Shown here piece by piece: positions 14,395 through 63,158 of a DNA stretch of 64,000 nt; positions within the stretch are counted from its first letter, which is position 1, and every line of letters begins with the position of its first letter. Source of the stretch: a virus (taxonomy: Duplodnaviria; Heunggongvirae; Uroviricota; Caudoviricetes). Below the pieces are notes generated by a model. It did no database searches. It saw only the letters and a program-made list of their open reading frames with translations, and had not been told where the DNA came from. Position numbers and translations under genes: made by a program. The stretch is from the IMG/VR virus record IMGVR_UViG_3300031134_000466; one strand, given 5' to 3'.

Positions 14395-16512
14395 TTACAG
14401 TTCACGACGACCTGTACGCAGTTCACGAAGCATACGCTCGTAAGCATATCCTGTCATTTCAGCGTCATTGTAAGCACGGTGAGCGCCAAGGTAAGGAACA
14501 TTGTAGCGGGCAGTGAATGAAGAGAGCTTATCGTTCGGAACATCAGTCAGAAGACGACGAGACAGTTTCAAAGTGTCAAGAATTTTGATTTTCTTGTGCT
14601 TCACAGCATCAGCAAAACCAGGAACATGTGTGGACATCCAACGCTGTTCAAAAGTCTTGTTGTGAGCCATCATGATACCAACATTTGTCAGCTGGTCAAG
14701 AACAGCAGTACCTTCAGCAGGGTTCAAGAACTGACGCTTCTTCGCAATCTGAGTTTCAGTAATACCATGCACTTCACTGTTGCCTGTGCTGCGAGTCAGG
14801 AGAGCTTTCTTCGAAAGACCGTAAAGCTTGCTTGTCTTAGCTTTCTCAGTGTCATTACGAGTCAGAGTAGAGTTACGGTAGTTGGTACGAACGGATGCAC
14901 CATACTCGATGATGCTACCTGAAGTAGGCTGAGAACCGGCAGTTTCCAAATCAACACTCACATAGTCAGGAAGCGTTTCCTGCTTAGCTGCCGTGACGTA
15001 GAGGCTACGAAGCTGAGCCGCAACATAGGTTCGGTCTTTGCGATTCTCATCATCGAAGTTGCCAGCAAACTCCTGCTCAACAACCTTAGAATCAACACCA
15101 CGCATTGTTGCAACTTCAGTGAAGATTTCCTGCTTCTCTTTGTTACTCAAGCTGGAGTTCAGAGCGTTCTGAGAGAAACCACGAGCGCGGTTACGTCCTT
15201 CCCAAGTACCAGCCTTACGGGAAGCAAGCTCGGTGTTGAACTTCTTCACAGCTTCAAGGTTGCCAGCAGCTTCCTGCTCAAGCTCAGGAGTCATAGTGAA
15301 ATGGTATTCACGGTATTCACGGTCGTCAATGACAACTGCAACCATACCACGCTTGAAACCAGCAGCCTGAGCATACCAAAGAGTCTGAGCTCGGTAAGTG
15401 TCAGGAACACCATCCAAACCATCTTCAGGGTTACCCCATTTGCCAGCAACAGAAGCAGTCTTGATTTCGACAATACCGTCAGGGTTACCATCCTTGTCAG
15501 CCATCAGACCGTCAAAGTTAGCAAACTGGAACTCGTTCTCGTTGTGCTTCCAAGAAGACTTGCAGAAAGTGATGTTGTCGTCAGGGTTGTTCTGCACAAC
15601 CTGGAGGAAGATTCGCTTCTCCCAAGCGTTACCACGACCAGCCGCGCCAGCATACTCTTCGTTGTTCAGTGCCTGCTCAGCAACCTGCTCATCAGTGATG
15701 GGTTCAAGCTTGGACTGCATGATTTCTTCATAGCTGTTGTAAGCACCCTTGACTCGCTTGATGGCTCCAACATCTGAACCACCAATACCTTTCTGACGCT
15801 GCTCAAGCCATTCACGAGTACCTGACTCGAACTCAGCAGTCTTAGTGAGTTCATTCAGCGTCTCTTTGTCATACTCACGCCATTCGCCAGCTTCACGAAG
15901 ACGGTTCTCTTCAAGGTCGGCAAGGTGAGCCACAACAGGTGCTGCAACGTCTTTGTACTCGTTAATCTGACGGCGGAGGAGACTGACTTCTTCGTTGATG
16001 TCAATCATCGCAAGTTCCTTCTGACGAACATCTTCGTAAAGGAACGCAGGGTCTTCTTCCCACTTCTTCTTCAGAAGGTCACGGTCAGCTTTAGTCTCCT
16101 CAAGAAGCTGCATGTTTGCATCACGCTTCTCAAGCAGGGCAGTAAAGTCTTCAGAGTTGATACGGTCCTGGATGAAGCTTTCCATGGCTTCCTCATCACC
16201 TGATTCAATCAGGCGGGCAGCTTCAGCTTTATCCTCTTCAACGGTCTTCAGAGCTTTCTGGTGACCGTAGGAACTAACAGGAGTGTAGGTACGCTCCATA
16301 GCTTCCTTCAAAATAGACATAGCAAGCAGGCTCTCAACATCGTTTGTGTTGTTCAGCTGCTTCTCAACCAGCTCAGCATTCTTGTGCTGATGATACTGGT
16401 ACTCAGTCATGTGTTCTCCGTTTATCAGTGTGCATTTCTTCTGTGCAGGGCAACGGACCCAATCGCCTTGCCTCTTGCCTGATTGCTGTTTATGGTAGTT
16501 CTTCATGGTCAA
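14395..16512 (-). CDS. Dual exonuclease: YqaJ/lambda-Exo-like PD-(D/E)xK domain fused to C-terminal DnaQ-like DEDDh 3'-5' exonuclease, with N-terminal coiled-coil
   Basis: GIGGSDVGAI motif, DG...DGIVEIK, Y..Q.Q (YqaJ family); then DLETAG (Exo I), AHNKTFE (Exo II), HRAYNDAEMT (Exo III, DEDDh). Confidence 0.7.
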   Translation of the reverse strand: MTMKNYHKQQSGKRQGDWVRCPAQKKCTLINGEHMTEYQYHQHKNAELVEKQLNNTNDVESLLAMSILKEAMERTYTPVSSYGHQKALKTVEEDKAEAARLIESGDEEAMESFIQDRINSEDFTALLEKRDANMQLLEETKADRDLLKKKWEEDPAFLYEDVRQKELAMIDINEEVSLLRRQINEYKDVAAPVVAHLADLEENRLREAGEWREYDKETLNELTKTAEFESGTREWLEQRQKGIGGSDVGAIKRVKGAYNSYEEIMQSKLEPITDEQVAEQALNNEEYAGAAGRGNAWEKRIFLQVVQNNPDDNITFCKSSWKHNENEFQFANFDGLMADKDGNPDGIVEIKTASVAGKWGNPEDGLDGVPDTYRAQTLWYAQAAGFKRGMVAVVIDDREYREYHFTMTPELEQEAAGNLEAVKKFNTELASRKAGTWEGRNRARGFSQNALNSSLSNKEKQEIFTEVATMRGVDSKVVEQEFAGNFDDENRKDRTYVAAQLRSLYVTAAKQETLPDYVSVDLETAGSQPTSGSIIEYGASVRTNYRNSTLTRNDTEKAKTSKLYGLSKKALLTRSTGNSEVHGITETQIAKKRQFLNPAEGTAVLDQLTNVGIMMAHNKTFEQRWMSTHVPGFADAVKHKKIKILDTLKLSRRLLTDVPNDKLSSFTARYNVPYLGAHRAYNDAEMTGYAYERMLRELRTGRREL

Positions 16513-23433: not shown

Positions 23434-24246
23434 ATGTGCAAACGCAAACCATACCCTCGTTGCAGCTACCATGCTCGCATCAAACTTGAAGCTGCAGAAA
23501 AGTCTGGTGATCTTGAACGCATCAAGCTTGCAAGAAGGAACTATTTCACTTCATTAGCTGGTATTGCTGACCTCAAAGCTCAGGGTAAAGATGCATTAGC
23601 TGCAAAATATGAGACTCGTAGAGCAAATCTCATTGCTCAAGCTGAACGTGAGACTAACCTCCGCAAGACACCCCTGGTTTTGGCGTTGGATGTAGACAAC
23701 ACCAGTGGTGACTTCACAGAATCCATTCGTAACCATGTCATGAAGACACAAGGACTTACTCCTGAACAGGCTGAAACACTTCTTCCTAGCCCTCCAACTC
23801 ACTACTCTTTCGTAGACTCAGGCTGGTTCACTGACGTTAACTCATTCCTGGATGCTTTCCATTCAGCGGAAGAGAATGGTGTTTACTCCAAGATGAAAGC
23901 TTTTGACGGAGTAAGCAAGACTCTTCGCACTTTGGTCAGTAATCGTGACGTTGAAGTTCGTGTTGTGACGGCCCGTGGTAACAGATGGAATGAAGAGACC
24001 CGTCAGTGGTTGCGTCGTCATCGTATTCCTTTCACTTCCATCACTCACACTGAGGACAAAGAGAAAGTCCCAGGTATCGATGTGTACATTGATGACTCTG
24101 ACAAGCAGATTAACACTCTGCAGAAGAACGGTAAGACAGTTATTGCGTTCGAGAATGCATACAACGCAACTGTTCCTTCTAAGTATCGTGTAAAGAAGTG
24201 GAAAGAAGTGCCGGCAGTTCTGAAACTCATCGCACAAGCCAAATAA
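23434..24246 (+). CDS. HAD-superfamily phosphatase carrying the N-terminal Cys-KP-RCS-H module shared with the three ADP-ribosyltransferases
   Basis: N-term MCKRKPYPRCSYHA; HAD motif I LDVDNT, motif II VVTARG, motif IV YIDDSD. Confidence 0.7.
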   Translation: MCKRKPYPRCSYHARIKLEAAEKSGDLERIKLARRNYFTSLAGIADLKAQGKDALAAKYETRRANLIAQAERETNLRKTPLVLALDVDNTSGDFTESIRNHVMKTQGLTPEQAETLLPSPPTHYSFVDSGWFTDVNSFLDAFHSAEENGVYSKMKAFDGVSKTLRTLVSNRDVEVRVVTARGNRWNEETRQWLRRHRIPFTSITHTEDKEKVPGIDVYIDDSDKQINTLQKNGKTVIAFENAYNATVPSKYRVKKWKEVPAVLKLIAQAK

Positions 24247-26371: not shown

Positions 26372-27676
26372 ATGGGAAAAATCATTGAAGAGACAATGCT
26401 TGTCATGGTTGACACAAAGAACAACAACAACAAGTTCTACCATGTCACATTGGATGATGCTAACGTCGTCACCAAGCGCTGGGGACGTGTAGGAGCTGAA
26501 GGAGCGAGTTCCGTCGAGACAACAGGCAAGATTGGTTACGAGCGAGCCATCAAGTCCAAAGAGAAAAAGGGCTACAAGGTCTCACCTATTGTTAGCACAG
26601 GTGTCACAGTCAAGAGTTCTGTCAACCACCTTGACGAAGTAGCTAAGAAGTTTCTGTCCAAGGACAGCGGAGACAGCCTTATCAGCAACCTCATTGACCG
26701 ACTCATCGCATCAAACCAGCACCAGATTATGGAGCAGTCCGGTGGTATGATTAAGATTACCGACGACGGAACCGTAAAGACCGCTCTCGGTGTTGTTGAC
26801 CTTTGCTCCATCAACTCTGCCCGAGACCTCATTGGTGAGATGCAGAAGAAGAAAACAGGGCAGACCAAGCTCCTGGAAGATTACCTCACCCTCATTCCTC
26901 AGAACATTGGGTACCGTCGTGGTTGGGAAGAGGACTTCCTGAAGACGGAAAACTTTGCCAAGCAGATGGACTTCTTGAAGCAGCTTGAGGATTCTGTGCA
27001 GTGGCGAAACACCACCGCACAGGTCACCACAGATGACGAAGACAAGTTCGACATCGATGCTCACAAAGACCTGTTCCGCATGAACCTTGCGAAGATTTCC
27101 GACAGCGGAAAAGACTTCGACCGTATCAACAAGATGTTTAAAGAAACACGCAACAACATGCACACATCACGTAACCTCAAACTTGTGAACGTGTATGCAG
27201 TGGAAGATGTCAAGGGCAAGGAAGCTTACGAAGCTGCTCAGAAGAAGTATGGAAACGTACGTGAACTCTGGCACGGAACAAAAGCCTCCAATGTTCTCTC
27301 CATTCTCACAAAGGGATTGTTCGTGCCTAACGCAGGTAGCGGTATCCCTGTGACAGGAAGAATGTTCGGTGATGGTGTCTACTTCAGTGACCAGAGCACC
27401 AAAAGCTTGAACTACGCCAACGGTTACTGGGATGGTTCACGCACCAGCCAGAACTGTTTCATGCTTCTGAACGATGTTGTCATGGGTCATGAGTACCGCC
27501 CTCAGCGTTGGGACTACAGCTCTCTCCGTCAGGCACACAAGGGCGTTGGAACTTCAGGTAAGCCTTACCAGTCCATCAGCGTTCGTGGTGGAACCTGTAA
27601 CGTTCGAAACAACGAAATGATTATTTGGAACACTGACCAGGTGGCTGTACGTTACCTCTGCGAATTTGGTAGCTAA
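26372..27676 (+). CDS. Poly(ADP-ribose) polymerase (PARP)-like protein: WGR domain + helical regulatory region + catalytic domain with H-Y-E triad
   Basis: WGR motif KFYHVTL...VVTKRWGRVGAEG...KKGYKV; catalytic LWHGTKASNVLSIL (His), GVYFSDQSTKS (Tyr), YANGY, NEMIIWN (Glu) in PARP order. Confidence 0.85.
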   Translation: MGKIIEETMLVMVDTKNNNNKFYHVTLDDANVVTKRWGRVGAEGASSVETTGKIGYERAIKSKEKKGYKVSPIVSTGVTVKSSVNHLDEVAKKFLSKDSGDSLISNLIDRLIASNQHQIMEQSGGMIKITDDGTVKTALGVVDLCSINSARDLIGEMQKKKTGQTKLLEDYLTLIPQNIGYRRGWEEDFLKTENFAKQMDFLKQLEDSVQWRNTTAQVTTDDEDKFDIDAHKDLFRMNLAKISDSGKDFDRINKMFKETRNNMHTSRNLKLVNVYAVEDVKGKEAYEAAQKKYGNVRELWHGTKASNVLSILTKGLFVPNAGSGIPVTGRMFGDGVYFSDQSTKSLNYANGYWDGSRTSQNCFMLLNDVVMGHEYRPQRWDYSSLRQAHKGVGTSGKPYQSISVRGGTCNVRNNEMIIWNTDQVAVRYLCEFGS

Positions 27677-28399: not shown

Positions 28400-28538
28400 A
28401 CATCTATATTCGGTTCAAAAGAACAAAATAACACTTAGATAACAGGCTATTGATCGGATGTAGAGAGGATGACATGTTTCTATAGTGCGTGTATCTCAGA
28501 TAATCTAAGGTTGTAATTCGCCTTGTTAGACATAAACT

Positions 28539-30460: not shown

Positions 30461-30499
30461 GGTTGGTAGCATATGCTTACATCTTGTTAGAGATTAGGT

Positions 30500-31465
30500 A
30501 TGTGCTACCCCAAACCTGGTCCTCGCTGTTCAGCTCATGCTGCAGTTAAACTGGCGACTGTAAAACTCGCTTCTACCAGCGGTAGTCAAGATTTTGCCGA
30601 GTACTTAGCTCATCAGGAGCGTCTTGAAGAAGCTCAGCTGGAGTATGACATCACGCCAGCAGGTTTGAAAGATTTACAGGATTTAGTGGGTCAACGAAAT
30701 GACCCTGACGCTGAGCTCCGTTATTCCAAAGCTAAAGCCCTGAGAGCAAAGAAGTTGGCTTTGTTGCATGAAGACCAGAAACAAGAGCAAGGTCATACTC
30801 TTGCAAGGGTTCAAGGGGTAAATGAAGATTTTTGTTCTGATGAAATTGTTCGTTCTAACAAAGATGCTGGAATCACATCCGCAGCTTTAGTAGCTGAAGC
30901 TGAACCGTGGTTTAATCAGTTGAACGATGATGAACTTTCTCAAATGCACTGGATGACCGACTATGGTTCAATGGAAGCTAATACGCACATCGCAGGAACC
31001 AATGACCATAAACGTTTTGGTGGTCTATTCTCTGCAGAGAACTTGGAATCTCGTATGGTTCAAGTTGACTCGGCTTTGAGTAAGTTTGAGTCACATCATG
31101 ATGAAGTTGTCTACAGGGGCTTTCGTGAAGGCTCTCTTCCCTCTGCTATGGCAAACAACTACCGGGTATCAGATGATGTGAAGCAAGCTGCAGTTCTGAA
31201 ATCTTTCACCGTAGGTGAAGTCTACAAGTCTGATTTCTACATGCCAACTTCTGTACAGCCTGAAGAGGCTGCTCGTTTTGCTGATTTCGGTTGCGTCATG
31301 GAAATCAAAACCCGCAAAGCTGCTCCTGTATCTGCCATTTCTGAAGTTCCCCGTGAGTCAGAAAAACTGATTGGTCGTAACAGTGAATTCAAAGTCGTGG
31401 CAATCAAAGAGAACATCATGTACGGCATTAAGAGAATGACTGTTGTTCAGTTAGAGCAACTCTAA
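30500..31465 (+). CDS. Mono-ADP-ribosyltransferase (R-S-E class) with N-terminal MCYPKPGPRCSAHA module
   Basis: Arg motif VVYRGF, Ser-Thr motif YMPTSV, catalytic PRESEKLIGRNSEFKVV (E-x-E). Confidence 0.7.
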   Translation: MCYPKPGPRCSAHAAVKLATVKLASTSGSQDFAEYLAHQERLEEAQLEYDITPAGLKDLQDLVGQRNDPDAELRYSKAKALRAKKLALLHEDQKQEQGHTLARVQGVNEDFCSDEIVRSNKDAGITSAALVAEAEPWFNQLNDDELSQMHWMTDYGSMEANTHIAGTNDHKRFGGLFSAENLESRMVQVDSALSKFESHHDEVVYRGFREGSLPSAMANNYRVSDDVKQAAVLKSFTVGEVYKSDFYMPTSVQPEEAARFADFGCVMEIKTRKAAPVSAISEVPRESEKLIGRNSEFKVVAIKENIMYGIKRMTVVQLEQL

Positions 31466-39327: not shown

Positions 39328-40449
39328 TCAGTCAGCAGTTTTTCCGTTCAAGTTCCAGAATGGCTTCTCAAACTCAGGCTGAATCATTTTCCAGATGATG
39401 TCAGAGATTTTCTTCTCAGACCTGGTATCAAAATGACCTCCGCTGTGACGAGAGAATAACAAACCAGTAATGCGTTTGTCTTCTTTCTGTACAGCTGCAG
39501 CGTAGTCCTTCTGAGTGTATCCTTCAGGAAGTTCAGAAAGAATACGGTTGTAAGTTTCCTCAACTGTTGCACGCAATTCAGCATGCTCTGCAAGTAGTCG
39601 GTCACGAGTTGTTTCGACATACTCAACGAACTCATCAGGGAGACCAACAATCCATGAAGTGAAGTCACCGTCAGCTACAAGCAGCTCCCAGATGCGACGC
39701 GAAGAAGCACCTGTGATGACACGGTGAAGCTGAACGTAGTCATCCTGTTTCACTTTCACTCGAACATCACTATCCAGGAAGTGAACAACAACGCCTTCTT
39801 TGTTCTCACGACCAGGAGCGGCCAAAGCTTCAGTAAGGCTGTTGTATTCAAACTGCTCAACCTTCAACCAAGTCCATTCATCAACCTGTGATGCTGGTAC
39901 AGAGCGACCTGTTGCTGTGTTCACTCGGGCAATCAAGATGAGGTCATCCAAATCACCGTAGTTAACAACGATACGGTTTGTAGGGTAGATGATTTCCCAG
40001 ATGTAAGTTTCACCAGCAAGTGGCTCCCATTTTCCGTCGTACAGCTCCTGGTAACGTGCTGTGGCATGCAGAGCCTGCTCAGAGCTGAATGAACCTCGTG
40101 TGGAGATGTTCAGTCGACCAGTTTCAGGGTTTACATATGAAACACCCATAGAACCATCTGCTTTGTCTGTGACAACGATAGGTCCAGTCAGTGCATCCTG
40201 AGGAACATCTGGTTCGCCGTGGTTAAAGAACTTACCAAGAGGGCGGGAGACAATCTCCTGGGTGGAACCGTCAACGATAAGTCCTCGTGAAGCTAATGTT
40301 GCAGCGTTCCAGGCTCGGTCAAACTGGCATACCTGTGAGTAGTCAAAGATAGCCAGGTCAAGCGTAGGGTGAACCTGACGATTGATGTGCTTGTTCTGGA
40401 ATTCAGCTGCCCAAAGTTCAGCAGGAGCGATATCGTAAATGTGTACCAT
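39328..40449 (-). CDS. ATP-dependent RNA ligase (Rnl family), paralog 1
   Basis: Nucleotidyltransferase motif I TDKADGSMG (KxDG), same order of downstream motifs as ORF 54122. Confidence 0.7.
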   Translation of the reverse strand: MVHIYDIAPAELWAAEFQNKHINRQVHPTLDLAIFDYSQVCQFDRAWNAATLASRGLIVDGSTQEIVSRPLGKFFNHGEPDVPQDALTGPIVVTDKADGSMGVSYVNPETGRLNISTRGSFSSEQALHATARYQELYDGKWEPLAGETYIWEIIYPTNRIVVNYGDLDDLILIARVNTATGRSVPASQVDEWTWLKVEQFEYNSLTEALAAPGRENKEGVVVHFLDSDVRVKVKQDDYVQLHRVITGASSRRIWELLVADGDFTSWIVGLPDEFVEYVETTRDRLLAEHAELRATVEETYNRILSELPEGYTQKDYAAAVQKEDKRITGLLFSRHSGGHFDTRSEKKISDIIWKMIQPEFEKPFWNLNGKTAD

Positions 40450-48655: not shown

Positions 48656-49461
48656 CTCTCACTATTGCTTCATACAACATCCAAGTGCCTGCCGCTAAAG
48701 CTGAATTCCATGGCTGGGAGGGGAGGAAAGAAGAACTGTTGGCAACGTTGCCAACTTTAGGTGATCTGTTTGGTTTACAAGAAGTTTCATACGTAGATAC
48801 TCAAGGGTCAGAGGTTTCAACCCAGCTACGTAACAACGGATTTGATGGTTATGAACCTTCACATAACGACTTTAGCGAATATGATGACGAATTCCATCAG
48901 AGAAATCCTATCTTCTGGAAAGCTGACAAATTTGAACTCAAACAAAGCCATGTAAGGCTACTCACTACAGGAACTGTCGAAGAGCAGCAAGAGCTTCCCA
49001 ATATTGAAAACAGATACAGCACTCACGTATTGCTGGAGCATGTTTCAGGTGATTTGATCCATTTCTTCAACCTTCACCAGCAGCATGTTCCCATTGAACT
49101 AACAGATGAAGAACTCATTGCCAAATATGCAGCGGTGCAGGTAAAAGGTCTGATAGCTTTGCACGAATTTGCTCAGGAAGTCAACCCAGAAAATAATCCT
49201 GCAATCATTGTTGGAGATTTCAACTCTGTTTCCCCAACTGTCATGGGGTTCACCTGTGCCAAGAAAGCCGCTAACGAAAACGTGAATGGCCAGTACAACA
49301 GCTACCACGGCTATGTAGAAGAAACGGCTGCTAACGGTGACTACATAATTGACCATATACTGTCAAATTTCCCAGCTGGTGACATTCTTCGCACTGAGAC
49401 TTTGATAGAAGACAAAGGCAGCGACCATTACCCTCTGCAAGCATCATTCAAACACTGCTGA
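48652..49461 (+). CDS. Endonuclease/exonuclease/phosphatase (EEP) family protein
   Basis: TIASYNIQ N-terminus, GDFNS, SDHYPL motifs; 4-nt overlap with rnhA. Confidence 0.7.
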   Translation: MTLTIASYNIQVPAAKAEFHGWEGRKEELLATLPTLGDLFGLQEVSYVDTQGSEVSTQLRNNGFDGYEPSHNDFSEYDDEFHQRNPIFWKADKFELKQSHVRLLTTGTVEEQQELPNIENRYSTHVLLEHVSGDLIHFFNLHQQHVPIELTDEELIAKYAAVQVKGLIALHEFAQEVNPENNPAIIVGDFNSVSPTVMGFTCAKKAANENVNGQYNSYHGYVEETAANGDYIIDHILSNFPAGDILRTETLIEDKGSDHYPLQASFKHC

Positions 49462-49519
49462 CGATAGTAAAAAATAGACTTCCGGTAGACTTGAACTCTG
49501 CCTAACCAGATTTGGAACC

Positions 49520-50176
49520 ATGAGAATAGTAGTAGCTGATTGTTCAGTCATTTACACAGGAAGAGGAGACACCCGTCTTCCCCGAGCAGTCCGAGCGATC
49601 ATTGTCAAAGATGATGGTTCAATCTCAGTGCATAACGACAAAAGTAACAAACCTTTGAACTATATGGGTAAAGGTAACGAGCTTTCAGAAGTTGAGCTGG
49701 AAGATTGTAAACTATGGTTCTTTGACACAAGGCAAGAAAGTCTCCGCATTACTTTACATGAAGTTATTTCTGACACTGATTTCCTCCTTGATCGAAACGA
49801 TGAAGGACTGATCCGTGACGGCACAGAGAAGCAGCTGCAGGCTTGGTTAGCAGAGAACCCAGAAGCATTAGGTGAAGGCTATACTTTCGTTCAAAGAGAA
49901 TATCAGACAGGTGCAGGAGCTGTTGATTTGTTAGTCACTGACCCTGAAGGTAACCCTGTGGCGGTAGAAGTGAAACGAGTGGCCATGATTAACAGTGTGA
50001 GCCAGACACAACGTTATGTTGAGTCGATGAAAGAGGACCCTGAGTTTGCCAATACCACTGGCATTATCGCCGCTTTAGACATTCGACCTAACACTGTGAA
50101 GTTAGCGGACAAAAAGAAAATCCGCTGTGTCACTTTACCAACATGGTGGCGTGACCCAGCGGATACTTCAATGTAA
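49520..50176 (+). CDS. NucS/EndoMS-like PD-(D/E)xK nuclease
   Basis: N-terminal beta-rich region then GAVDLLVTDPEGNPVAVEVKR (D...EVK) C-terminal RecB-like core. Confidence 0.5.
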   Translation: MRIVVADCSVIYTGRGDTRLPRAVRAIIVKDDGSISVHNDKSNKPLNYMGKGNELSEVELEDCKLWFFDTRQESLRITLHEVISDTDFLLDRNDEGLIRDGTEKQLQAWLAENPEALGEGYTFVQREYQTGAGAVDLLVTDPEGNPVAVEVKRVAMINSVSQTQRYVESMKEDPEFANTTGIIAALDIRPNTVKLADKKKIRCVTLPTWWRDPADTSM

Positions 50177-50177
50177 T

Positions 50178-50666
50178 TCAGCCGTCAAACTTTTCGACAT
50201 CTTGAGGTGCTACACGGTAAGCGTATTCTGTTTTTGCTGACAGGTAGTACACGTACAGCTTGTCAGTTTTGTCAGTACTGGTTTCCAGAATGTAATTACG
50301 TTTTGCATCTTCATCCAAGAACCCGTTCTGATTGTGAAGCATCTCAAGCGATTCTTCTTTTGTAAGGCCAAGATAAGAGTAGTTCTTGTCAAACCATTTC
50401 AAATAGCTTTTTTCTGAAATAGCTACTTTCTGTTGGGGCTGGAAGAATGAAATGTGCCAGAAGCTGAAACCGGCAGCTCCTACAAGAAGGAGAGTGAATA
50501 GCCAGGTCAGGATAACAGGAAGTTGCCTGATGGCAGGGATAATCATGCCCAGGATGAGTAACCCTGCTGGGATGAGGAGGAACCAGAAGTTGAAGTTCTC
50601 ATACCCAGATAGATCATGAGGAGGCAACCAACCAGTGAGGTCTTCCAGTGTGATGTCGTTGGGCAT
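50178..50666 (-). CDS. Membrane protein (3 TM), unknown
   Basis: Hydrophobic helices in N-terminal half. Confidence 0.45.
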   Translation of the reverse strand: MPNDITLEDLTGWLPPHDLSGYENFNFWFLLIPAGLLILGMIIPAIRQLPVILTWLFTLLLVGAAGFSFWHISFFQPQQKVAISEKSYLKWFDKNYSYLGLTKEESLEMLHNQNGFLDEDAKRNYILETSTDKTDKLYVYYLSAKTEYAYRVAPQDVEKFDG

Positions 50667-50800
50667 GATTCTAATGTTCCTTAATCGTTGTCAGCTTTAT
50701 GAGCGGTCAAAGAATTCTATCATCAACGGCTAAAGCACATAGTATTTGACAGCTGGCTGGGTTTCATGGTAAGTTGGAGTATCTTAAGTTAGGAAACAAA

Positions 50801-51706
50801 ATGTCACAGATAATGCGGATTCACCGTGGAGTGCAAGGCTCTGGTAAATCCACAGAAGCCATCCGTTGGGTGAACCAGGACCCGTTAAACCGTGCCCGTG
50901 TGAACCGTGATGACATTCGTCTCAGCCAGTTCGGCTCCTACGAGCTTCCTCAGGAACTCGAAGTTGCTGTTACCAAAGTAGAGCATGCCATCATCACCGC
51001 ACTTCTTGCTGCACGCAAAAGTGTTGTTGTTGACAATGTGAACCTGAAAGCCAAGTACGTTAAAGAGTACCTGCTTATTGCGGAGAAAGCCAACGTACCT
51101 GTTGTGCATCAGGACTTCCCTGTGGAGTTGGAGACAGCTCTTGCTCGTAACGCTGCTCGTGACCGTAAAGTCCCTGCACATGTGATTGAGACAACATTCA
51201 AGCGTTACATTCAGAGTGGCAAGTTCCCTCCGTTCCCCGTACTTGACTACGAAGCCGCTGCAGCAGGAATCTATGTTCCTGATGAGACTCTGCCTAAAGC
51301 TATCCTTTTGGATGTTGACGGCACAGCCATGAAGATGGGTTCACATCGTGGACCGTTTGACTGGCACAAAGTCATTGATGACGAGCCTAACCCGCCTGTT
51401 GTTGAAACAGTAAAAGCTTTGCATGCTCAGGGCTACAAAGTTGTTGTCATGTCTGGTCGTGATGAAGTCTGCAAAACAGACACGTTACTTTCTCTGGAAG
51501 TAGCTGGTGTTCCTGTGGATGAAATCTACATGAGACCCCACAACGATTACCGTAAAGACAACATCATCAAGCGTGAACTTTTTGATGCTCACATTCGGGA
51601 GCGTTTCAACATCCTGTTAGCTTTGGATGACCGGAACCAGGTTGTGGACGCTTACCGTCGTGAGCTGGGTCTTCCTGTCTTTCAGGTTGACTACGGAGAC
51701 TTCTAA
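50801..51706 (+). CDS. Polynucleotide 5'-kinase/3'-phosphatase (T4 Pnkp architecture)
   Basis: N-terminal P-loop GVQGSGKST and kinase core, C-terminal HAD phosphatase LLDVDGT ... MSGRDE ... LDDRNQ; ATG 50801 with AGGAAA RBS. Confidence 0.8.
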   Translation: MSQIMRIHRGVQGSGKSTEAIRWVNQDPLNRARVNRDDIRLSQFGSYELPQELEVAVTKVEHAIITALLAARKSVVVDNVNLKAKYVKEYLLIAEKANVPVVHQDFPVELETALARNAARDRKVPAHVIETTFKRYIQSGKFPPFPVLDYEAAAAGIYVPDETLPKAILLDVDGTAMKMGSHRGPFDWHKVIDDEPNPPVVETVKALHAQGYKVVVMSGRDEVCKTDTLLSLEVAGVPVDEIYMRPHNDYRKDNIIKRELFDAHIRERFNILLALDDRNQVVDAYRRELGLPVFQVDYGDF

Positions 51707-51717
51707 GTCAGCATGAG

Positions 51718-51752
51718 TAAAGCCCCGAATCGTAACTTGATTCGGGGCTTTA
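51718..51752. terminator. 14-bp stem-loop between convergent genes
   Basis: taaagccccgaatc ... gattcggggcttta. Confidence 0.5.
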
Positions 51753-51757
51753 CCTGT

Positions 51758-52729
51758 TTAAATTTCTCGCAGCTGCACAATTGTCAGTTCAGTTGCTTCA
51801 CCTTTTTTATTGACCCTTTTGACTTTCACATCATTAGCAACAACTTCGAATTTTGCACCACGAGGAATGATGAACTCATACTCTCTTGGACCTTGCGATG
51901 AAATAGCTGTGATTGGGGCTCCACTTTTTGTAAGAATCTGTAAAGAAACATTGATGTTGTCTTTGGAAGGTAAATCTTGAGGATTCAAACTTGTCGATAA
52001 GAAGAATTTAGGTTCGTAAGTGCTACCAACAGGGAAATGTTTGTCGAGGTTTTGAGCGTCATCACTTGAATGATATCCTTTTTCATCATAAAGATGATGA
52101 CGGCGGTAAACCATCACGCCTTCTTCTGCTGGTTCGTGTTTAGCAAAAGCATCATCCAGGATAGTTACAGCTGCATCCAACGTTTCAGGTGCAACATTTT
52201 TTGCGTACGGATTTGTTGAAGCTGAAAGATGGCCGTTGATGTCAGCATAGCCATCTTCTGAATACCAGCGAAGAGTAGCTATTTCAGTATCATCCAGTTT
52301 GGCACTCCAGTTTTGGGAATCTGCCATGCTGTTCAACAGGTCAGCATGTTTGTAATGCATCTCTTCAAGAGTGTCACCAGTTTCGAAAAACGTCGGAGAA
52401 GTGTAAGCAGCTTTTTGTGCTTTTTTGTGGGTGATGACTTTACGATCCGCAACAGCAGCTAATCTTCTGGCTCGTTCTTGAGAAAGCGCTTCGTATTCTT
52501 CTGCATGCCATTCCTGCGTTGGATTCTTTTTGATCTGTCTTTCCAAAGACTTTAGATAAGCTGGTGTTAGTTTGTACTCTGCTTCAGCTTTTCTTCTTAC
52601 CGCTATTAGCTTCTCAAGCTCTGGGTCTTTGCGGTTGTCCATGAAAGCACTGAGAACCGCTTGATGAGCTTTAGCGTAGGTGGCTGCAGCATGAGCTGAA
52701 CAACGGGGACCAGGTTTTGGGTAACACAT
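51758..52729 (-). CDS. Mono-ADP-ribosyltransferase (R-S-E class) with N-terminal MCYPKPGPRCSAHA module
   Basis: Arg motif MVYRRH, classic STS motif FLSTSLN, catalytic PREYEFIIPRGAKFEVV (E-x-E); N-terminal 100 aa paralogous to ORF 30500. Confidence 0.7.
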   Translation of the reverse strand: MCYPKPGPRCSAHAAATYAKAHQAVLSAFMDNRKDPELEKLIAVRRKAEAEYKLTPAYLKSLERQIKKNPTQEWHAEEYEALSQERARRLAAVADRKVITHKKAQKAAYTSPTFFETGDTLEEMHYKHADLLNSMADSQNWSAKLDDTEIATLRWYSEDGYADINGHLSASTNPYAKNVAPETLDAAVTILDDAFAKHEPAEEGVMVYRRHHLYDEKGYHSSDDAQNLDKHFPVGSTYEPKFFLSTSLNPQDLPSKDNINVSLQILTKSGAPITAISSQGPREYEFIIPRGAKFEVVANDVKVKRVNKKGEATELTIVQLREI

Positions 52730-52811
52730 GCTCCATTTCTAACAGCTTGACATCCCATCATTTATCCGATACTGTTGTTACTATACGAACCGAATAGCAG
52801 ATTGAGGTTAT

Positions 52812-53015
52812 ATGCCTGGAATGATGGCTTCCAACAAGAACCGTGCCGTGAACAACGTTGACAGCACTATGTTCGATGATGGTTTCTGGCAGCACCGACA
52901 CTTCAAAGGTAAGCGTCGCACTGGAGCTGCAACTGGTGGTCGCGGTTGGCGTCGAGCTCTTCGCAAGAAGGAGAAGCAGAGCGTCAAAAAGGACATCCGT
53001 AACGACGAAATGTGA
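52812..53015 (+). CDS. Small highly basic protein (67 aa)
   Basis: Lys/Arg-rich (GKRRTGAATGGRGWRRALRKKEKQ); followed directly by a terminator hairpin; alternative antisense ORF exists. Confidence 0.3.
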   Translation: MPGMMASNKNRAVNNVDSTMFDDGFWQHRHFKGKRRTGAATGGRGWRRALRKKEKQSVKKDIRNDEM

Positions 53016-53021
53016 ACTGTA

Positions 53022-53065
53022 AATAGGGTCAAAATCCTGATAAACTCAAGGATTTTGACCCTATT
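53022..53065 (+). terminator. 16-bp stem-loop followed by T-tract
   Basis: aatagggtcaaaatcc ... ggattttgaccctatt ttgtt. Confidence 0.5.
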
Positions 53066-53146
53066 TTGTTGCTGGATACCGTGTTCTGTGGTAGACTTGA
53101 GTAACATACAACGCAGCATCACACAGTTCACTGAAAGGGTTCCATT

Positions 53147-54028
53147 ATGACTACAAATTTAGGTTTCAGAGCTGAGGTCTCATACGACGCAGTGAAAGAT
53201 TTGACTCTCATGAGTTCATCATCTTCAGACTTCTCTTCTCCTCTTAACTTTGCCCTCACACGAGGTTCTGACGAGGACAAAGCCGTCAGGGCTCTCCTCG
53301 AAGACCAGGGACGAGTAGAATTCGTCAAGTCAGCGGTTTCTTTGAACAACCTTTCCCAGGTAGGTTCTTTCGGTGTTAGAACAGACGGTAATCCTTCCCG
53401 AGCTGACCTGGGTGTTCACAAGAACCTCACTATCGCAGGTAAAGATGGTTCAGGTGTTCTGAACTTCGTCAGAAACTATCTTCTTTGGGCTTACGCTACA
53501 AACACTCGAATCTATGCTGTGAACGCTCCAGCTGACATGTACGGTGCTGTGAATTACTTGCGTACTGACAAACTGGTTCGTATCGACTCAGGAGATGAGC
53601 CGAACATTGATTCCATCTGGAGTCAGTACGATGCTGATGTTGCTGCTGGTCGTCCTGTGCTTGTGTTGGTGAACAGCATTGGTGATATCGAAGACCAGGA
53701 TGAGGTGGTTGCAAGTTTCCTTGCCCATGTTGACACACGCAAGTTCGAAGTTTACGCTCTTTCTTTCTCAACATTCCAGGAAGAGCTTCCAGAAGACACT
53801 CATTACGAGAACTTCTTCTGGCGAGTTGGTGTTGACGCTGAGCACACTACAGGTTTCATTGGTGACACTCTTCCTGAGATTGCATCTTACATGATGAAAG
53901 AACATGTAGGAATTCCTCATGAGAACCCTCGTGGCGTGCTGTGGTTAAACAGAAATGCTGAGCGTTACGAACGAGTTATCACCTATGTGGTGCCTCGTCG
54001 TTTCTGGGAAGACAGCCTGAACTTCTGA
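53147..54028 (+). CDS. Hypothetical protein
   Basis: ORF only. Confidence 0.5.
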   Translation: MTTNLGFRAEVSYDAVKDLTLMSSSSSDFSSPLNFALTRGSDEDKAVRALLEDQGRVEFVKSAVSLNNLSQVGSFGVRTDGNPSRADLGVHKNLTIAGKDGSGVLNFVRNYLLWAYATNTRIYAVNAPADMYGAVNYLRTDKLVRIDSGDEPNIDSIWSQYDADVAAGRPVLVLVNSIGDIEDQDEVVASFLAHVDTRKFEVYALSFSTFQEELPEDTHYENFFWRVGVDAEHTTGFIGDTLPEIASYMMKEHVGIPHENPRGVLWLNRNAERYERVITYVVPRRFWEDSLNF

Positions 54029-54037
54029 TTTCAGACA

Positions 54038-54080
54038 ATTGAGGGACCTGTGCTTGTAATTAAAGTGCAGGTCCCTCAAT
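54038..54080 (+). terminator. 13-bp stem-loop followed by T5 (intrinsic terminator)
   Basis: attgagggacctg ... caggtccctcaat tttttg. Confidence 0.55.
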
Positions 54081-54121
54081 TTTTTGTATTCTGCTGTCTG
54101 TTTCTTTGTTAGTAATAGGGC

Positions 54122-55363
54122 ATGTCAACTACAAGAAAACCTCCTTATCATCACAGCGATGGTACAAACTGCTGGACTAAAGATTGTTCGATCAGAGGCC
54201 GTGAAGATACAGAAAAAGCTGCTTTCTTCAAGCAAGTAGAAACAGCTGCTGAGACTGTTGTTCCAACCAATGAATTGCCTCCTCTGTCAGCTTTTCAGAA
54301 AGCCTATGATGATGGTCGCATTGAGTGCAGCCGCCACCCTGAACATCCTTATGTGACTTACAAGTATTCCAGAACAACTCAGTTTGCTTCTGACTGGGAT
54401 GATGTGACCTTAGCGTCTCGTGGTGTCATCTTCAATGAGGAGACAGGCGAGATTGTTGCTCGTCCATTTGCTAAGTTCTTCAACCATAACGAACCGTCAG
54501 TTCCCAGAGACAAATTACATGGCCGTATTAGTGTAACTGACAAGCTGGACGGTTCTTTAGGAATTGGTTATGTTGATGAGAACGGTAAGTTCAACATTGC
54601 AACCTCTGGAAGCTTTATCTCTGAACAGGCAAAACGTTCTACAGAGCTCTATCATGAGCGTTATGAAGGCAACTGGAAGCCAAATCCTAAGTTGACCTAC
54701 ATGTGGGAAATCATCTACCCAGAAAATCGTGTCGTGGTCAACTATGGCGATGAAGATGACTTGCATCTCATCGGTGCTGTCAACAAACGAACTGGTAAAT
54801 CAGTTCCGTTGCGTGACATCAAAGAATGGAAGTGGAAAAGAGCTGAAGAGTACAAAGACTTCTCCTCCTTGGATGCTGTTCTTCACTCTCCTGAAAGAGA
54901 AAACCGTGAAGGTTTCATTGTTCATTACATCGATACTGATACCCGCGTGAAATACAAGCATGCAGATTATCTTGAGCTCCATCGTAACCGTACTGGCGTG
55001 ACTTCCAAAACTATCTGGCGTAAAATGCGTATGGGTGAAGATATGGCAGGTTGGAAAGAGAACATGCCTGAAGAGTTCAGTGAGTTCGTATCCACTCGTC
55101 AAGCTAAAATCACTGCCGGATATAACAAAGAAATTGCCCAAATTACTGATGAGCATGGCACTTTCAAAGCAACTCTTCCTGCTGGTTATGACCGTAAGAC
55201 TTTTGCTACCACTTTGAAAAACTCACCTCTTGTACCAGCCGAAAACAAAGCTTTCGTCATGAACCTTGAGTTCAACGGCAGTGCTGTTGGAAGTGTTGTT
55301 CAATCTCATAAGATTTGGGACCGTGTGAAACCTGAGGACGAGAACACCTTGTGGAACATGTAA
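54122..55363 (+). CDS. ATP-dependent RNA ligase (Rnl family), paralog 2
   Basis: Motif I TDKLDGSLG; collinear with ORF 39328 (SRG..F..E....ARP.AKFFNH.EP, GSF.SEQA, YMWEIIYPENRVVVNYGD, REG.VVH). Confidence 0.7.
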   Translation: MSTTRKPPYHHSDGTNCWTKDCSIRGREDTEKAAFFKQVETAAETVVPTNELPPLSAFQKAYDDGRIECSRHPEHPYVTYKYSRTTQFASDWDDVTLASRGVIFNEETGEIVARPFAKFFNHNEPSVPRDKLHGRISVTDKLDGSLGIGYVDENGKFNIATSGSFISEQAKRSTELYHERYEGNWKPNPKLTYMWEIIYPENRVVVNYGDEDDLHLIGAVNKRTGKSVPLRDIKEWKWKRAEEYKDFSSLDAVLHSPERENREGFIVHYIDTDTRVKYKHADYLELHRNRTGVTSKTIWRKMRMGEDMAGWKENMPEEFSEFVSTRQAKITAGYNKEIAQITDEHGTFKATLPAGYDRKTFATTLKNSPLVPAENKAFVMNLEFNGSAVGSVVQSHKIWDRVKPEDENTLWNM

Positions 55364-55364
55364 T

Positions 55365-55652
55365 TCAAGTAAAGAGGTTCCACAAAAAGTCTCCGACCCC
55401 GAAGATAATAAAGAACAAGTTTATCATTAGAGCAGAAAAGAAAATTTTTTGCGAAACATTGGAGGCTTGACTTTGATTATCAATAAGATTACCAGCTCCA
55501 GCAAATAAGAGGACCAAACCCCACCAAGCCGCTCCCTTAAAAACAAAAATATAAATTACAGCCAGAACAACCAAGATAACATAATAAAACGCGGCAAAAT
55601 AAAGAAGTGCTTGAGTATCTTGTTGTTCTTCATTGGTAGAATTAGTTTTCAC
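55365..55652 (-). CDS. Small membrane protein (2 TM)
   Basis: Two hydrophobic helices. Confidence 0.35.
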   Translation of the reverse strand: MKTNSTNEEQQDTQALLYFAAFYYVILVVLAVIYIFVFKGAAWWGLVLLFAGAGNLIDNQSQASNVSQKIFFSALMINLFFIIFGVGDFLWNLFT

Positions 55653-55746
55653 CTTGGACCTCCTAATTTTAAATCGGCTGATTATTTTACGAATTGTACT
55701 GTAATTATAGTCATTCTGACGATAAAGATGGTATGATTAGGATGTT

Positions 55747-56412
55747 ATGAAGAACACATACGGAATTCTCGGCGGATATGGGGCGGTAGCCACCCTACAT
55801 CTCCAGCAGCTGCTCGTGAAGCGAGTCCTCAGCACTGGACAGTACGCTGATATTGCCTTCCCTCGTATGGTAATTTCCAATCTGCCTGAAGACATCATCA
55901 ATGCTGAAGGACATATCAGCAGCCTTGGTAGCCTGCGGACTGAACTTGGTAAAACAGCTCCTCTATTCCAAGGAGCCACAGATGTTTATGTCATTTGTAA
56001 CACCTTCCATGTCGAAGAAGAGTTCATGCAGCGAGTCTTCGCTAACAAACTACATTCTGTTCCGGCTTTAACCAGTCAAGCTGTCGTAGATGCTGGATAC
56101 TCCAAACCTCTTATCGTAGGTTCCAAGCTGACTTCTCAGGATAACCTGTACAGTCATACAGCTTACACCTCAACTAACATGTTTGCGGATGAGCTAATCA
56201 CTGCTGGAATGAAGTACCAGACATCTCACTCTCAGCTGGCAGATGTCATAGCTGCTGCCAAACAGGCTAGCTCAGACTGCATTGTTTTAGGTTGCACAGA
56301 TTTGTCCGTGATGGCTGACACTCTCCGAACCATGACTGCACTTCCCGTAATCGACTCCGTTGAAGCAGTCGCCAACCATATTTACAACTCCCATACGAAA
56401 GATGAATCGTGA
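55747..56412 (+). CDS. Asp/Glu/hydantoin racemase-family protein
   Basis: N-terminal ILGGYGAVATLH (GGMG-type motif) and second-half VLGCTDLS (GCTE-type) with the two catalytic-Cys-region positions. Confidence 0.65.
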   Translation: MKNTYGILGGYGAVATLHLQQLLVKRVLSTGQYADIAFPRMVISNLPEDIINAEGHISSLGSLRTELGKTAPLFQGATDVYVICNTFHVEEEFMQRVFANKLHSVPALTSQAVVDAGYSKPLIVGSKLTSQDNLYSHTAYTSTNMFADELITAGMKYQTSHSQLADVIAAAKQASSDCIVLGCTDLSVMADTLRTMTALPVIDSVEAVANHIYNSHTKDES

Positions 56413-57374
56413 AAGTCTACAACGACACAGTAACCATGACTGCAGAGCTGGCTCAGACCTTAGAGCAATTGAGAGCTGTGCGGGCTTTTGACGCTACAGA
56501 ATGGATTGAGCGTAAGGTTGTCCTAATCAACCAGTACTTCGCTCAGAACAAGCTCTCAGGGGCTGTAGTAGGTGTTTCTGGTGGCATCGACTCAGCTGTA
56601 GCCCTTTCACTTCTTGTCAAAGCATCCCAGCAAGACAACAGCCCAATTCAGAAGATTGTCCCTCTTCTACTTCCTGCTCTTTCTTACGAAGGTGCAACTA
56701 ACCAAGACGGGGCAGTTCAGCAGGCTACTGACCTATGCCAGAACCTTGGACTGAAGCCAGCTGTTTTCACTAAGCTCACATCTCTTTCCCAAGTGATTAC
56801 TTCTGAACTGGAAGACATTCTGGACATCAAATCAACAGACTGGGCTAAAGGACAGCTAGTGGCTTACACCAGAACCCCAGTCCTGTACAACACCTGCTCA
56901 ATCCTTACTGACGCCGGCTACCCTGCACTGGTTGTAGGAACCACAAACCTTTCCGAAGGTGGATACCTCGGTTATGTCGGAAAAGCTTCAGATGGTATGG
57001 TTGACCTGCAAGTAATTTCTGATTTGTACAAGTCAGAAGTGTACAAAGTCGCAGCTTTACTTGAAGTTCCTGAAAGCGTTATGAAAGCTACTCCTACAGG
57101 GGACATGTACGACGGTCGTGAAGATGAAACAGTTTTCGGAGCTTCTTACGACTTCGTAGAGCTGTTTCATCTATGGCTACAGGCACGCAGCGTCCCATTG
57201 AAACTTCTTCGAGATGCCCACTTTGTCACAGGAGCTAAAAACCTGCAAAAACTGCACGACTACAACGCACATAAGTACACCTACGGAACTCCATCCATTC
57301 ACCTGGACATTATGAACGCAGCAATCCCAAACGGATGGAACAATCAGCCTTGGAGGCCCCAGAATGGCAACTAA
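56409..57374 (+). CDS. Divergent NAD+ synthetase (NadE)-like PP-loop amidotransferase
   Basis: PP-loop VGVSGGIDSAVA; GTTNLSEGGYLGYVGKASDGMVDLQVISDLYKSEVYKVA matches NadE GT.N.SE...GY.TKYGDG..D..P; 4-nt overlap with upstream gene. Confidence 0.7.
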   Translation: MKVYNDTVTMTAELAQTLEQLRAVRAFDATEWIERKVVLINQYFAQNKLSGAVVGVSGGIDSAVALSLLVKASQQDNSPIQKIVPLLLPALSYEGATNQDGAVQQATDLCQNLGLKPAVFTKLTSLSQVITSELEDILDIKSTDWAKGQLVAYTRTPVLYNTCSILTDAGYPALVVGTTNLSEGGYLGYVGKASDGMVDLQVISDLYKSEVYKVAALLEVPESVMKATPTGDMYDGREDETVFGASYDFVELFHLWLQARSVPLKLLRDAHFVTGAKNLQKLHDYNAHKYTYGTPSIHLDIMNAAIPNGWNNQPWRPQNGN

Positions 57375-59624: not shown

Positions 59625-59641
59625 GATGATAGACATGATGC

Positions 59642-62238: not shown

Positions 62239-62312
62239 TCACAAAAACGTGCTTTTTCGTCAATATGACGATATACTGTAATAAGAATGGTCTAAGGAAG
62301 GAAACCCGTATC

Positions 62313-63158
62313 ATGACCAAGCTCCAGAAACAGATTATTAACACTCTTGGGGTAAAACCCGTCATCAATGCCGAACAGGAGCTACGCACTCGTGTAGATT
62401 TCCTCAAAGACTTCACCCGTAATGCTGGCACCAGAGGATTTGTACTTGGAATCAGTGGTGGACAGGACTCTGCTCTTGCCGGCTACATTGCACAGACAGC
62501 TGTCCGTGAACTCCGCGACGAGACGGGTGAGAACTACCAGTTCTTAGCTCTTCTTCTTCCTTACGGGACTCAGAAAGACGCTGATGATGCAATCACCATC
62601 GCCCGTGACTTCATCAAGGCTGACCAGGTAATTGAGTACAACATCAAGCCTGCAGTGGATGCTTTCACTGACCAGTACAATGACATCGCTGGCTGGTCAG
62701 GCGATGAAGCTGATAACCTCAGCGATTACCATAAAGGTAACGTCAAAGCCCGCACCCGTGCCGTAACACAGTACGCTTACGCTGGTACCCATCAGCTGCT
62801 TGTTGTAGGTACAGACCATGCTGCTGAGGCAGTATCAGGCTTCTTCACCAAGTTCGGTGACGGTGCAGCTGACGTTCTCCCTTTGAGCGGTTTGAACAAA
62901 CGTCAGGGCAAAGAGCTTCTTCGCTTGGCAGGTGCTCCCGAGTTCGTCATCACCAAAGCTCCCACAGCGGACCTTCTGGACAACAAAGCAGGTCAGGCTG
63001 ATGAGACTGAGCTGGGTATTACATACGATGTTCTTGACGACTACCTTGAAGGTAAAGATGTCAATGTAGTTGCAGCTCAGAAAATTGAACTGCGTTACCT
63101 GATGACAGAACACAAGCGTCAACTCCCAGTTGACCCTGCAGCAACATGGTGGAAGTGA
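62313..63158 (+). CDS. nadE: NH3-dependent NAD+ synthetase
   Basis: Near-collinear with E. coli NadE from the N-terminus ([34 protein letters not shown]...[13 protein letters not shown]); ATG 62313 with AAGGAAGG RBS. Confidence 0.9.

Follow-up and report, generated by a model that had tools for sequence, protein, structure and literature searches.

An ADP-ribosyltransferase gene with intact predicted catalytic motifs behind an undescribed N-terminal leader domain in a 64,000-nucleotide viral record

A 64,000-nucleotide stretch of the IMG/VR virus record IMGVR_UViG_3300031134_000466 (hereafter the window) contains an open reading frame (ORF), 51758..52729(-), that by its sequence and predicted fold is a real ADP-ribosyltransferase (ART) gene of the VIP2/C3/Alt type with its catalytic motifs intact. 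We refer to this gene as ART3, and to two further ART genes of the window as ART2 (ORF 30500..31465) and ART1 (ORF 28539); P-numbers denote homologous proteins and L-numbers loci that carry homologues. The enzyme itself is an ordinary further member of a well-known phage and toxin ART clade. What is new is the architecture, in which the ART stands behind an uncatalogued and widely distributed N-terminal domain (the leader) with a nearly invariant N-terminus. Judged from sequence comparison, this leader is an independent, undescribed module of about 100 residues that is joined to many different enzymes.

Profile, fold and sequence searches all place the C-terminal part of ART3 among VIP2-like enzymes. 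PF03496 (ADPrib_exo_Tox) matches residues 138–303 with 74.6 bits against a cut-off of 23.4 (E = 8.7e-21), and the Arg, S-T-S and ExE motifs follow one another in the order expected for the PF03496 clade and align with the motifs of VIP2. An earlier note on this DNA, made from the letters alone, had read the ORF as an R-S-E ART with YRR, STS and EYE motifs and had called its STS and EYE the clearest among the three ARTs. All of these motifs are present at the positions given in Table 1, and although R, S-T-S/T and ExE occur in ART1, ART2 and ART3 alike, the STS and ExE of ART3 are the most canonical of the three. An AlphaFold2 (AF2) model calculated with 48 homologues as input is confident (predicted local distance difference test (pLDDT) 92, predicted template modelling score (pTM) 0.90) and lays the protein out as an N-terminal loop, four helices, a mostly non-helical linker (residues 93–128) and an ART fold (residues 129–323). 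Foldseek comparison with the PDB retrieves VIP2 (1qs1, E = 1.6e-10), Certhrax, Plx2A, Tre1, CDTa, C3 and ExoS, with E values of 1e-10 to 1e-8 and probability 1.00 for VIP2, Certhrax, C3, CDTa, Tre1 and ExoS; the earlier note had named the failure to predict an ART fold as fatal to its reading, and the model and its structural neighbours provide one. The nearest solved sequences by phmmer are VIP2, CDTa and Iota Ia (E = 8e-8 to 3e-5). Among 48 ART3 homologues with identities down to 24%, R209, E283 and E285 are invariant and S245 is nearly so, indicating that the active site is under selection; in a 20-sequence alignment both S245 and S247 are nearly invariant. In this ART clade ExE goes with arginine acceptors and QxE with asparagine, and the ExE in the ARTT loop therefore makes arginine the likely acceptor of ART3.

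ART3 and ART2 are, on the evidence of their alignment, paralogues over their whole length that have diverged evenly apart from one short segment. They align end to end (BLASTP E = 4e-34) with identities of 27.5% in the leader past residue 15, 12% in the linker and 30.7% in the ART domain, whereas residues 1–15 (MCYPKPGPRCSAHAA) are 100% identical. The earlier note had recognized this identical start, counting 14 residues where there are 15, and was right that the N-terminal 100 residues are paralogous; its view that the catalytic domain is different does not hold, because the ART domains are slightly more alike than the leaders past residue 15. At 30.7% identity they are nevertheless far from the near-identical copies that the note had said would indicate a simple duplication. 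The DNA encoding the shared 15-mer differs at 4 of 45 nucleotides, all of them synonymous, so the shared peptide reflects conservation at the protein level and not a recent copy. Recent gene conversion was considered as a source of the identical 15-mer and rejected, given these synonymous differences and the retention of the peptide in homologues at 23% identity. Each paralogue also has its own orthologues elsewhere, from P0001 (97%) to P0011 (47%) for ART3 and including P0029 (94%) and P0037/P0038 (48%) for ART2, so the duplication is old and both copies have been maintained. ART1 represents a third and larger lineage (109 matches). Its ART domain is homologous to that of ART3 (hhalign probability 99.7%, E = 4.9e-26), and it is without the helical leader (hmmsearch with the leader profile, E = 0.8), starting instead with a short K-C-x-K-P-x-G-x-Y-C-R-L-H sequence, that is, C-x7-C-x2-H.

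The leader is the part of ART3 that reaches furthest beyond the ARTs. In AF2 models it consists of a Cys-x7-Cys loop followed by helices at residues 11–31, 37–53, 56–68 and 73–92, and includes a TPAG-type turn and R86. Members of the ART3 family whose overall identity has dropped to 23% still keep the decapeptide M-C-Y-P-K-P-G-P-R-C essentially unchanged, and some matches found in the ART3 search share only the first ~100 residues before continuing into DUF7226 or unrelated sequence. We searched a profile of residues 1–101 (consensus MCYxKPGPRC...TPAG...R) against 1.84 billion cluster representatives (50% identity) and obtained 1026 matches at E ≤ 1e-3, with 396 at E ≤ 1e-10. The match begins at residue 1 in 150 of the 150 best matches listed out of the 1026; the proteins among the matches listed are 84 to 792 residues long, and the leader also occurs as stand-alone proteins of 84–85 residues. 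Pfam domains and alignment columns were counted in 139 leader proteins taken mainly from these profile matches. Many of the 139 are without any Pfam domain, and the partners of the others include ADPrib_exo_Tox (50) and ART (23), two related models whose counts may overlap, together with DUF7226 (4), RNase T (4), YqaJ (2), T4-type RNA ligase (2) and single cases of LPD29, HD and RNase H-like domains. M1, C2, Y3, G7, P8, R9, C10 and R86 are invariant in all 139 sequences, and P6, S11, A14, A48, T55, P56, G58 and L62 are nearly so; ART3 departs from the rest at position 58, with Tyr where 138 of the 139 have Gly. Position 13 is His in 83% of these proteins and position 101 in 38%. An intramolecular four-ligand zinc site formed by C2, C10, H13 and H101 was rejected on these counts, since only the two Cys are invariant; the Cys pair could instead form a disulfide or an inter-subunit metal bridge, take part in N-terminal Cys chemistry or shape a rigid recognition loop.

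No catalogue that we searched describes this domain. The leader has no match in Pfam, NCBIfam or the PDB, a PDB profile search returns nothing below E = 0.16, and NCBIfam matches none of the ART or leader proteins. Searches for the leader in phage sequences gave only chance matches in INPHARED (tblastn, E ≥ 2) and no relative in 2.9 million IMG/VR contigs (one profile and two degenerate DNA patterns for M-C-x-x-K-P-G-P-R-C). Cellular and plasmid sequences do contain it: a scan of GTDB representatives gave a single match, to the leader only, in Demequina; 13 records of Rhodococcus linear plasmids carry it (L012 8001-9164); it lies in an unannotated ORF of the Kineococcus radiotolerans linear plasmid pKRAD01 (L013 8001-8420); and it occurs twice in Demequina sediminis (L001 10001-11107 and ~4700-5824), near pilin-like genes and a 905-residue membrane protein.

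Three genes of the window match the leader profile in a local hmmsearch, namely ART3 (E = 1.4e-29), ART2 (E = 6e-30) and 23434..24246(+) (E = 3e-16), the last of which fuses the leader (MCKRKPYPRCSYHA...) to an NT5C-type 5'-deoxynucleotidase with an LALDVDNT motif and an NT5C match. An Rnl1-like RNA ligase, 54122-55363(+), and a YqaJ-RNase T protein, 14395..16506(-), have variant Cys pairs at their N-termini (C-x4-C and C-x5-C), and homologues elsewhere of the RNA ligase type (P0144, 495 residues) and of the YqaJ-RNase T type (P0158, 776 residues) bear the canonical MCYxKPGPRC leader. The earlier note had taken the ARTs as scattered copies that keep the leader, vary the catalytic domain and so form a modular effector family. 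This fails for ART3 and ART2, which diverge evenly, and for ART1, which is without the helical leader; at the scale of the leader family, modularity is real, with the leader joined to many non-ART enzymes, including the NT5C gene of the window. The partners are not only toxins, and since an RNA ligase or a nucleotidase is no toxin, the word effector goes further than these architectures do.

We consider it on balance probable that ART3 acts inside the cell as an arginine-directed mono-ART that modifies a host protein, with NAD synthesis by the element as its fuel and the leader as a shared adaptor. ART3 would then be an active, NAD+-dependent mono-ART within the C2/C3/VIP2/Alt-like R-S-ExE clade and one of three paralogues, long diverged, on a very large mobile element that resembles a phage and probably resides in an actinobacterium. 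The enzyme would ADP-ribosylate arginines of a host protein within the bacterial cell, for takeover or counter-defence, using NAD+ supplied through NAD-synthesis genes a few kb away, and its mRNA, probably leaderless, would start from an extended -10-like box and end at a hairpin common to ART3 and the convergent Pnkp gene. The leader, as domain architectures suggest, would be an adaptor through which various enzymes reach one shared place or partner. Intracellular action is suggested by two features of the protein: it has no hydrophobic signal sequence, and its AF2 model shows no second ART-like adaptor domain, residues 1–92 forming a four-helix bundle. A lipoprotein or Sec signal was considered for ART3 and rejected for want of a hydrophobic stretch at the N-terminus.

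Several observations weigh against this account. The closest solved relatives are toxins that act on eukaryotic actin, and an extracellular role may be compatible with the homology; some R-S-E enzymes modify nucleic acids, and ART3 repeatedly adjoins RNA-repair genes; and the adaptor role proposed for the leader is drawn solely from domain architectures. Neither a capsid nor a terminase gene was seen in the window, the IMG/VR and INPHARED sequences searched do not contain the leader, and the leader protein P0158 adjoins DnaE and LytR in a cell-like context.

The homology to toxins raises the alternative, to us the least probable of those considered, that ART3 is secreted, either as a 'Trojan horse' actin ART directed at eukaryotic grazers or as an inter-bacterial polymorphic toxin with a helical leader of the type VII secretion system kind. 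Binary actin-ADP-ribosylating toxins (Bacillus VIP2, C. difficile CDTa, C. perfringens Iota Ia and C2I) are secreted, have two tandem ART-fold domains of which the N-terminal one is an inactive adaptor, and depend on a pore-forming B component. VIP2, CDTa and Ia are the best sequence and fold matches of ART3 and share with it R, STS and ExE and the ART fold including the helices before the core; ART3 differs in that its leader, a Cys loop with four helices, is followed by one ART domain only and no signal peptide is present, and no B-component family was found in its flanking genes or among 25 families listed from the other ORFs of the window. Among single-domain ARTs of similar size, Serratia Tre1 and C3 resemble ART3 in fold (Foldseek E about 2e-9 to 4e-9). 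C3 has QxE and an asparagine target, and Tre1, a toxin delivered by the type VI secretion system (T6SS), has an adjacent immunity gene (Tri1). ART3, by contrast, has ExE and neither an adjacent immunity gene nor a T6SS delivery feature: no co-oriented immunity gene lies downstream, where a strong terminator-like hairpin and the convergent Pnkp gene directly follow, and Pfam gives no match on ART3 to WXG, LXG, PAAR, Rhs or another trafficking domain. A conserved N-terminus before variable C-terminal enzymes does recall polymorphic toxins (PMC3482391), and VIP2-like ARTs of freshwater actinophages have been proposed as anti-predator toxins (PMC6802176); against both stands the joining of the leader to non-toxic enzymes such as RNA ligase and NT5C.

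Viral ARTs raise a further possibility. T4 Alt, ModA and ModB are phage-encoded arginine-directed mono-ARTs for host takeover, with several paralogues per genome, and T4 Alt and the T4 internal proteins carry an N-terminal capsid-targeting sequence. It is possible, if rather unlikely in our view, that the leader is likewise a capsid- or ejection-targeting module and ART3 a virion-packaged, injected effector like Alt or the MuF fusions; leader-bearing enzymes (the ARTs and the nucleotidase here, RNA ligase and exonucleases elsewhere) would then enter the cell together with the DNA. The placement of the leader at residue 1 in every one of the best matches listed and the invariance of M1-C2-Y3 are consistent with this, and against viral models the top Foldseek matches of ART3 are MuF/minor-capsid-ART fusions and Gordonia phage VIP2-like proteins, both of which also have an ART behind an N-terminal non-catalytic module; T4-like Alt proteins are matched as well. 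That module is MuF in the fusions, whereas in ART3 it is the ~100-residue domain that no Pfam, NCBIfam or PDB entry matches. In INPHARED, tblastn with ART3 finds one distant match, 27.9% identical, which is the 'minor capsid and ADP-ribosyltransferase fusion' of a Mycobacterium prophage. The window resembles T4 in its several ART paralogues, and ART3 has a weak match to phrog_802 ('Alt-like RNA polymerase ADP-ribosyltransferase', E = 1.3e-8); this match covers residues 28–214 and leaves the catalytic core outside, no homology was found to the Alt N-terminal region, and the surroundings of NAD synthesis and RNA repair are not the T4 layout. Head or morphogenesis genes, which packaging would lead one to expect, are not found near ART3 in the window, no protease cleavage site was identified, and the leader is missing from all phage sequences searched in INPHARED and IMG/VR while occurring at the cell-like locus beside DnaE and as stand-alone proteins of 84–85 residues. 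Its presence on plasmids, and in Demequina near pilin-like genes and a gene for a large membrane protein, is in line with the packaging reading, and its partners resemble the domains of polyvalent, DNA-co-delivered proteins, including one LPD29 fusion (PMC5512222). About 44% of phage ARTs stand in contexts that suggest packaging (PMC9503650).

The reading of ART3 as an intracellular ART fuelled by the element draws on its gene neighbourhood (Table 1). ART3 is surrounded by genes for NucS, an EEP nuclease, Pnkp, an Rnl1-like ligase, a racemase, NadE, a 2OG oxygenase and a NadD-like adenylyltransferase, and both NadE genes and the NadD-like gene lie within 10 kb of it. Pnkp is of the T4 type (50774..51706(+); PF25109, E = 6e-48, and PF13671) and faces ART3, in agreement with the convergent arrangement that the earlier note described. 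Two NadE genes, the NadD-like gene, the PARP and three ARTs give the window a strong emphasis on NAD, and its RNA-repair genes comprise Pnkp and two Rnl1-like RNA ligases. Elsewhere it encodes RNR-beta, two dCMP deaminases, DnaK, an SNF2 helicase, and membrane and export proteins; Rfam at gathering thresholds gives nothing in the window, and no tRNAs were found in it.

Table 1 Positions of ART3, its domains and motifs, and related features in the window
Feature	Position	Strand	Basis or remark
ART3 coding sequence	51758..52729	-	ATG start, 323 residues + stop; PF03496; 51 metagenome homologues
N-terminal peptide, residues 1–15, near-invariant	52685..52729	-	Same in ART2
Leader domain, residues 1–101	52427..52729	-	AF2 models; leader profile search
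Linker, residues 102–134, poorly conserved	52328..52426	-	AF2 secondary structure; 12% identity to ART2
ART catalytic domain, residues 135–323	51761..52327	-	Pfam, Foldseek, phmmer
YRR motif, Y208-R209-R210	52100-52108	-	Translation
Catalytic Arg209	52103..52105	-	Translation; invariant, 48 family members
S245-T-S247	51989..51997	-	Translation; conservation in alignments
E283-Y-E285, ExE of ARTT loop	51875..51883	-	Translation; both Glu invariant
Promoter-like box before ART3, TGTTAGAAAT	52735..52744	-	Ends 5 nt before ATG
Same box, ART2	30485-30494	+	5 nt before ATG
Same box, ART1	28524-28533	+	5 nt before ATG
Same box, NT5C gene	23416-23425	+	8 nt before ATG
Same box, Rnl 54122	54107-54116	+	5 nt before ATG
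Same box, ORF 59642	59627-59636	+	5 nt before ATG
Same box, YqaJ-RNase T 16506	about 16512-16521	-	5 nt before ATG
Bidirectional terminator-like hairpin, Pnkp/ART3	51719..51751	.	Sequence; predicted fold
NadE	56409..57374	+	
Second NadE	62265..63158	+	
NadD-like nicotinate-nucleotide adenylyltransferase, 507 residues	58101..59624	+	
WGR-PARP, 434 residues, 0.9 kb upstream of ART1	26372..27676	+	
Second T4 Rnl1-type RNA ligase	39328-40449	-	phrog_562, E = 6e-64
905-residue protein, dNMP-kinase-like N-terminus and C5 cytosine methylase interrupted by Hint/intein	18430-21147	+	

Comparison with other loci shows that NAD supply and RNA repair are a recurrent theme near ART3 orthologues. In L004 the orthologue (51% identical) is convergent with Pnkp, with Rnl also adjoining; in L002 it is convergent with Tpt1/KptA; and in L015 the orthologue P0008 stands between PnuC (an NMN transporter) and a NadR-like gene on one side and NadE and RNA ligases on the other (1798-6589). 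Thg1, 2H and RNA ligases lie near other orthologues, and in L006, which holds three ARTs, the ART3-family protein P0033 (29% identical) has thymidine kinase and Thg1 nearby; the queried ART is adjoined there by a second ART with the canonical leader, and a third with a different N-terminus lies ~7 kb upstream. The same theme is reported for viral NAD and ADP-ribose (ADPr) systems and for NAD-centred jumbo phages, whose gene sets likewise combine NadE and NadD/NadR-like genes with PARP, ARTs and RNA repair (PMC9503650; PMC11662467); the passages searched in these papers do not mention three leader or Cys-loop ART paralogues together with a leader-NT5C gene under a shared box.

This proximity to RNA-repair genes invites the idea that ART3 modifies RNA or DNA ends or bases in concert with Pnkp, RNA ligase and Tpt1, the leader recruiting all of them to nucleic acid. 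We judge it improbable, as the ExE in the ARTT loop is typical of arginine-specific protein ARTs, despite the DNA-modifying R-S-E enzymes pierisin and Scabin as precedents. Convergence with Pnkp in both the window and L004 and with Tpt1/KptA in L002, and the Thg1, 2H and RNA-ligase genes near other orthologues, speak for such a role; the adjacency is not universal, however, since L008 has thymidine kinase in that place and L014 and L016 have ORFans, and the clustering may be no more than a sign of a shared NAD/ADPr counter-defence island. Fusions of the leader elsewhere to T4-type RNA ligase and YqaJ/RNase T exonucleases, and the promoter-like box that Rnl 54122 has in common with ART3, likewise favour the idea.

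A broader and more tentative proposal, which we hold to be possible and short of probable, concerns the leader itself. Mobile elements of actinobacteria, whether giant and phage-like, linear plasmids or integrated islands, would use it as an undescribed module for delivery or recruitment that marks a co-regulated arsenal of ARTs, nucleotidase, exonucleases, RNA ligases and acetyltransferase-like proteins; through its invariant Cys-x7-Cys loop these would be packaged, ejected or docked onto a single host structure shared by all. If so, ART3 would be one warhead of a new modular effector system, borne by elements of 0.64-1.0 Mb that are missing from current phage and genome catalogues. The family comprises at least 1026 clusters at 50% identity, is uncatalogued in Pfam, NCBIfam and the PDB, has an almost invariant decapeptide, and connects ARTs in mobile elements of actinobacteria with exonucleases, RNA ligases and nucleotidases, so the binding partner of the leader, once learned, would give a functional handle on hundreds of uncharacterized proteins. 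ART3 would gain in importance if the leader turned out to serve delivery or recruitment, or if very large actinobacterial elements of a new class turned out to be its source.

The size of these elements is indicated by homologues of the three ARTs on many single metagenomic contigs of 0.64-1.0 Mb, which carry P0201, P0223, P0224, P0244, P0245, P0264, P0282, P0307, P0006, P0010, P0026 and P0033. P0201 is 97% identical to ART1 and its contig measures 776,559 bp; the contigs of P0006, P0010, P0026 and P0033 reach about 0.7-1.0 Mb. Three ART lineages, a PARP, two NadE genes and RNA-repair genes occur on single contigs of this size. The phage catalogues searched have no such contigs and the GTDB representatives almost none, which makes ART3 a marker for a class of very large elements as yet unexplored. 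The best, unproven reading of the source, as judged from gene content, is a giant phage-like element of an actinobacterial host; a megaplasmid or a tiny cell may also account for it. Among phage records, the window PARP matches only phages of 137-462 kb, the best being jumbo Xanthomonas and Stenotrophomonas phages at 40% identity, and the RecE-like domain of the window has its nearest relatives in Propionibacterium and Gordonia phages; in INPHARED, positions 49000-56000 find no match by megablast. The T4-type Pnkp, the two Rnl1-like ligases, the intein-bearing methylase and NucS of the window also favour this reading, as do the Rhodococcus and Kineococcus linear plasmids and the Demequina loci that carry the leader.

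The genes of the proposed arsenal also share a feature upstream. A box with the consensus T-G/A-T/A-TAG-n-n-A-T (TGTTAGnnAT type) lies a few nucleotides before the ATG of ART3, ART2, ART1, the NT5C gene and three further genes (Table 1), and the same box and spacing precede ART orthologues in L004, L006 (twice) and L008, whose proteins are only 30-50% identical. In ART3 its TG and TAGAAA have the placing expected of an extended -10 promoter that serves a leaderless mRNA: with the A of the ATG as transcription start, TG would lie at -15/-14 and TA at -12/-11, the spacing of extended -10 promoters. Several other genes have a comparable box (TGnTAnnnT-like) a few nucleotides before the ATG, as in the PARP gene (TGCTATAAT-N6-ATG), and a crude count finds a Shine-Dalgarno-like motif in only 22 of 68 candidate genes of the window. 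Leaderless transcription is a habit of Actinomycetota, and the pattern suggests that it is widespread in this element, with the box as a candidate promoter. At the other end of ART3, the 51-nt gap between the stop codons of Pnkp and ART3 holds a hairpin with 13 Watson-Crick pairs by eye, which the predicted fold extends (dG -28.8 kcal/mol, z = -7.1; 0 of 200 shuffles fold as well). A simple promoter and terminator scan did not flag this hairpin, which by the scan rule is without a 5-T tail; from its predicted fold, a role as bidirectional terminator is plausible. Divergent from ART3, ~80 bp from its start, a 67-residue, very basic ORF with a GAGG Shine-Dalgarno motif occupies 52812-53015(+), and a hairpin at about 53030-53075 lies downstream of it.

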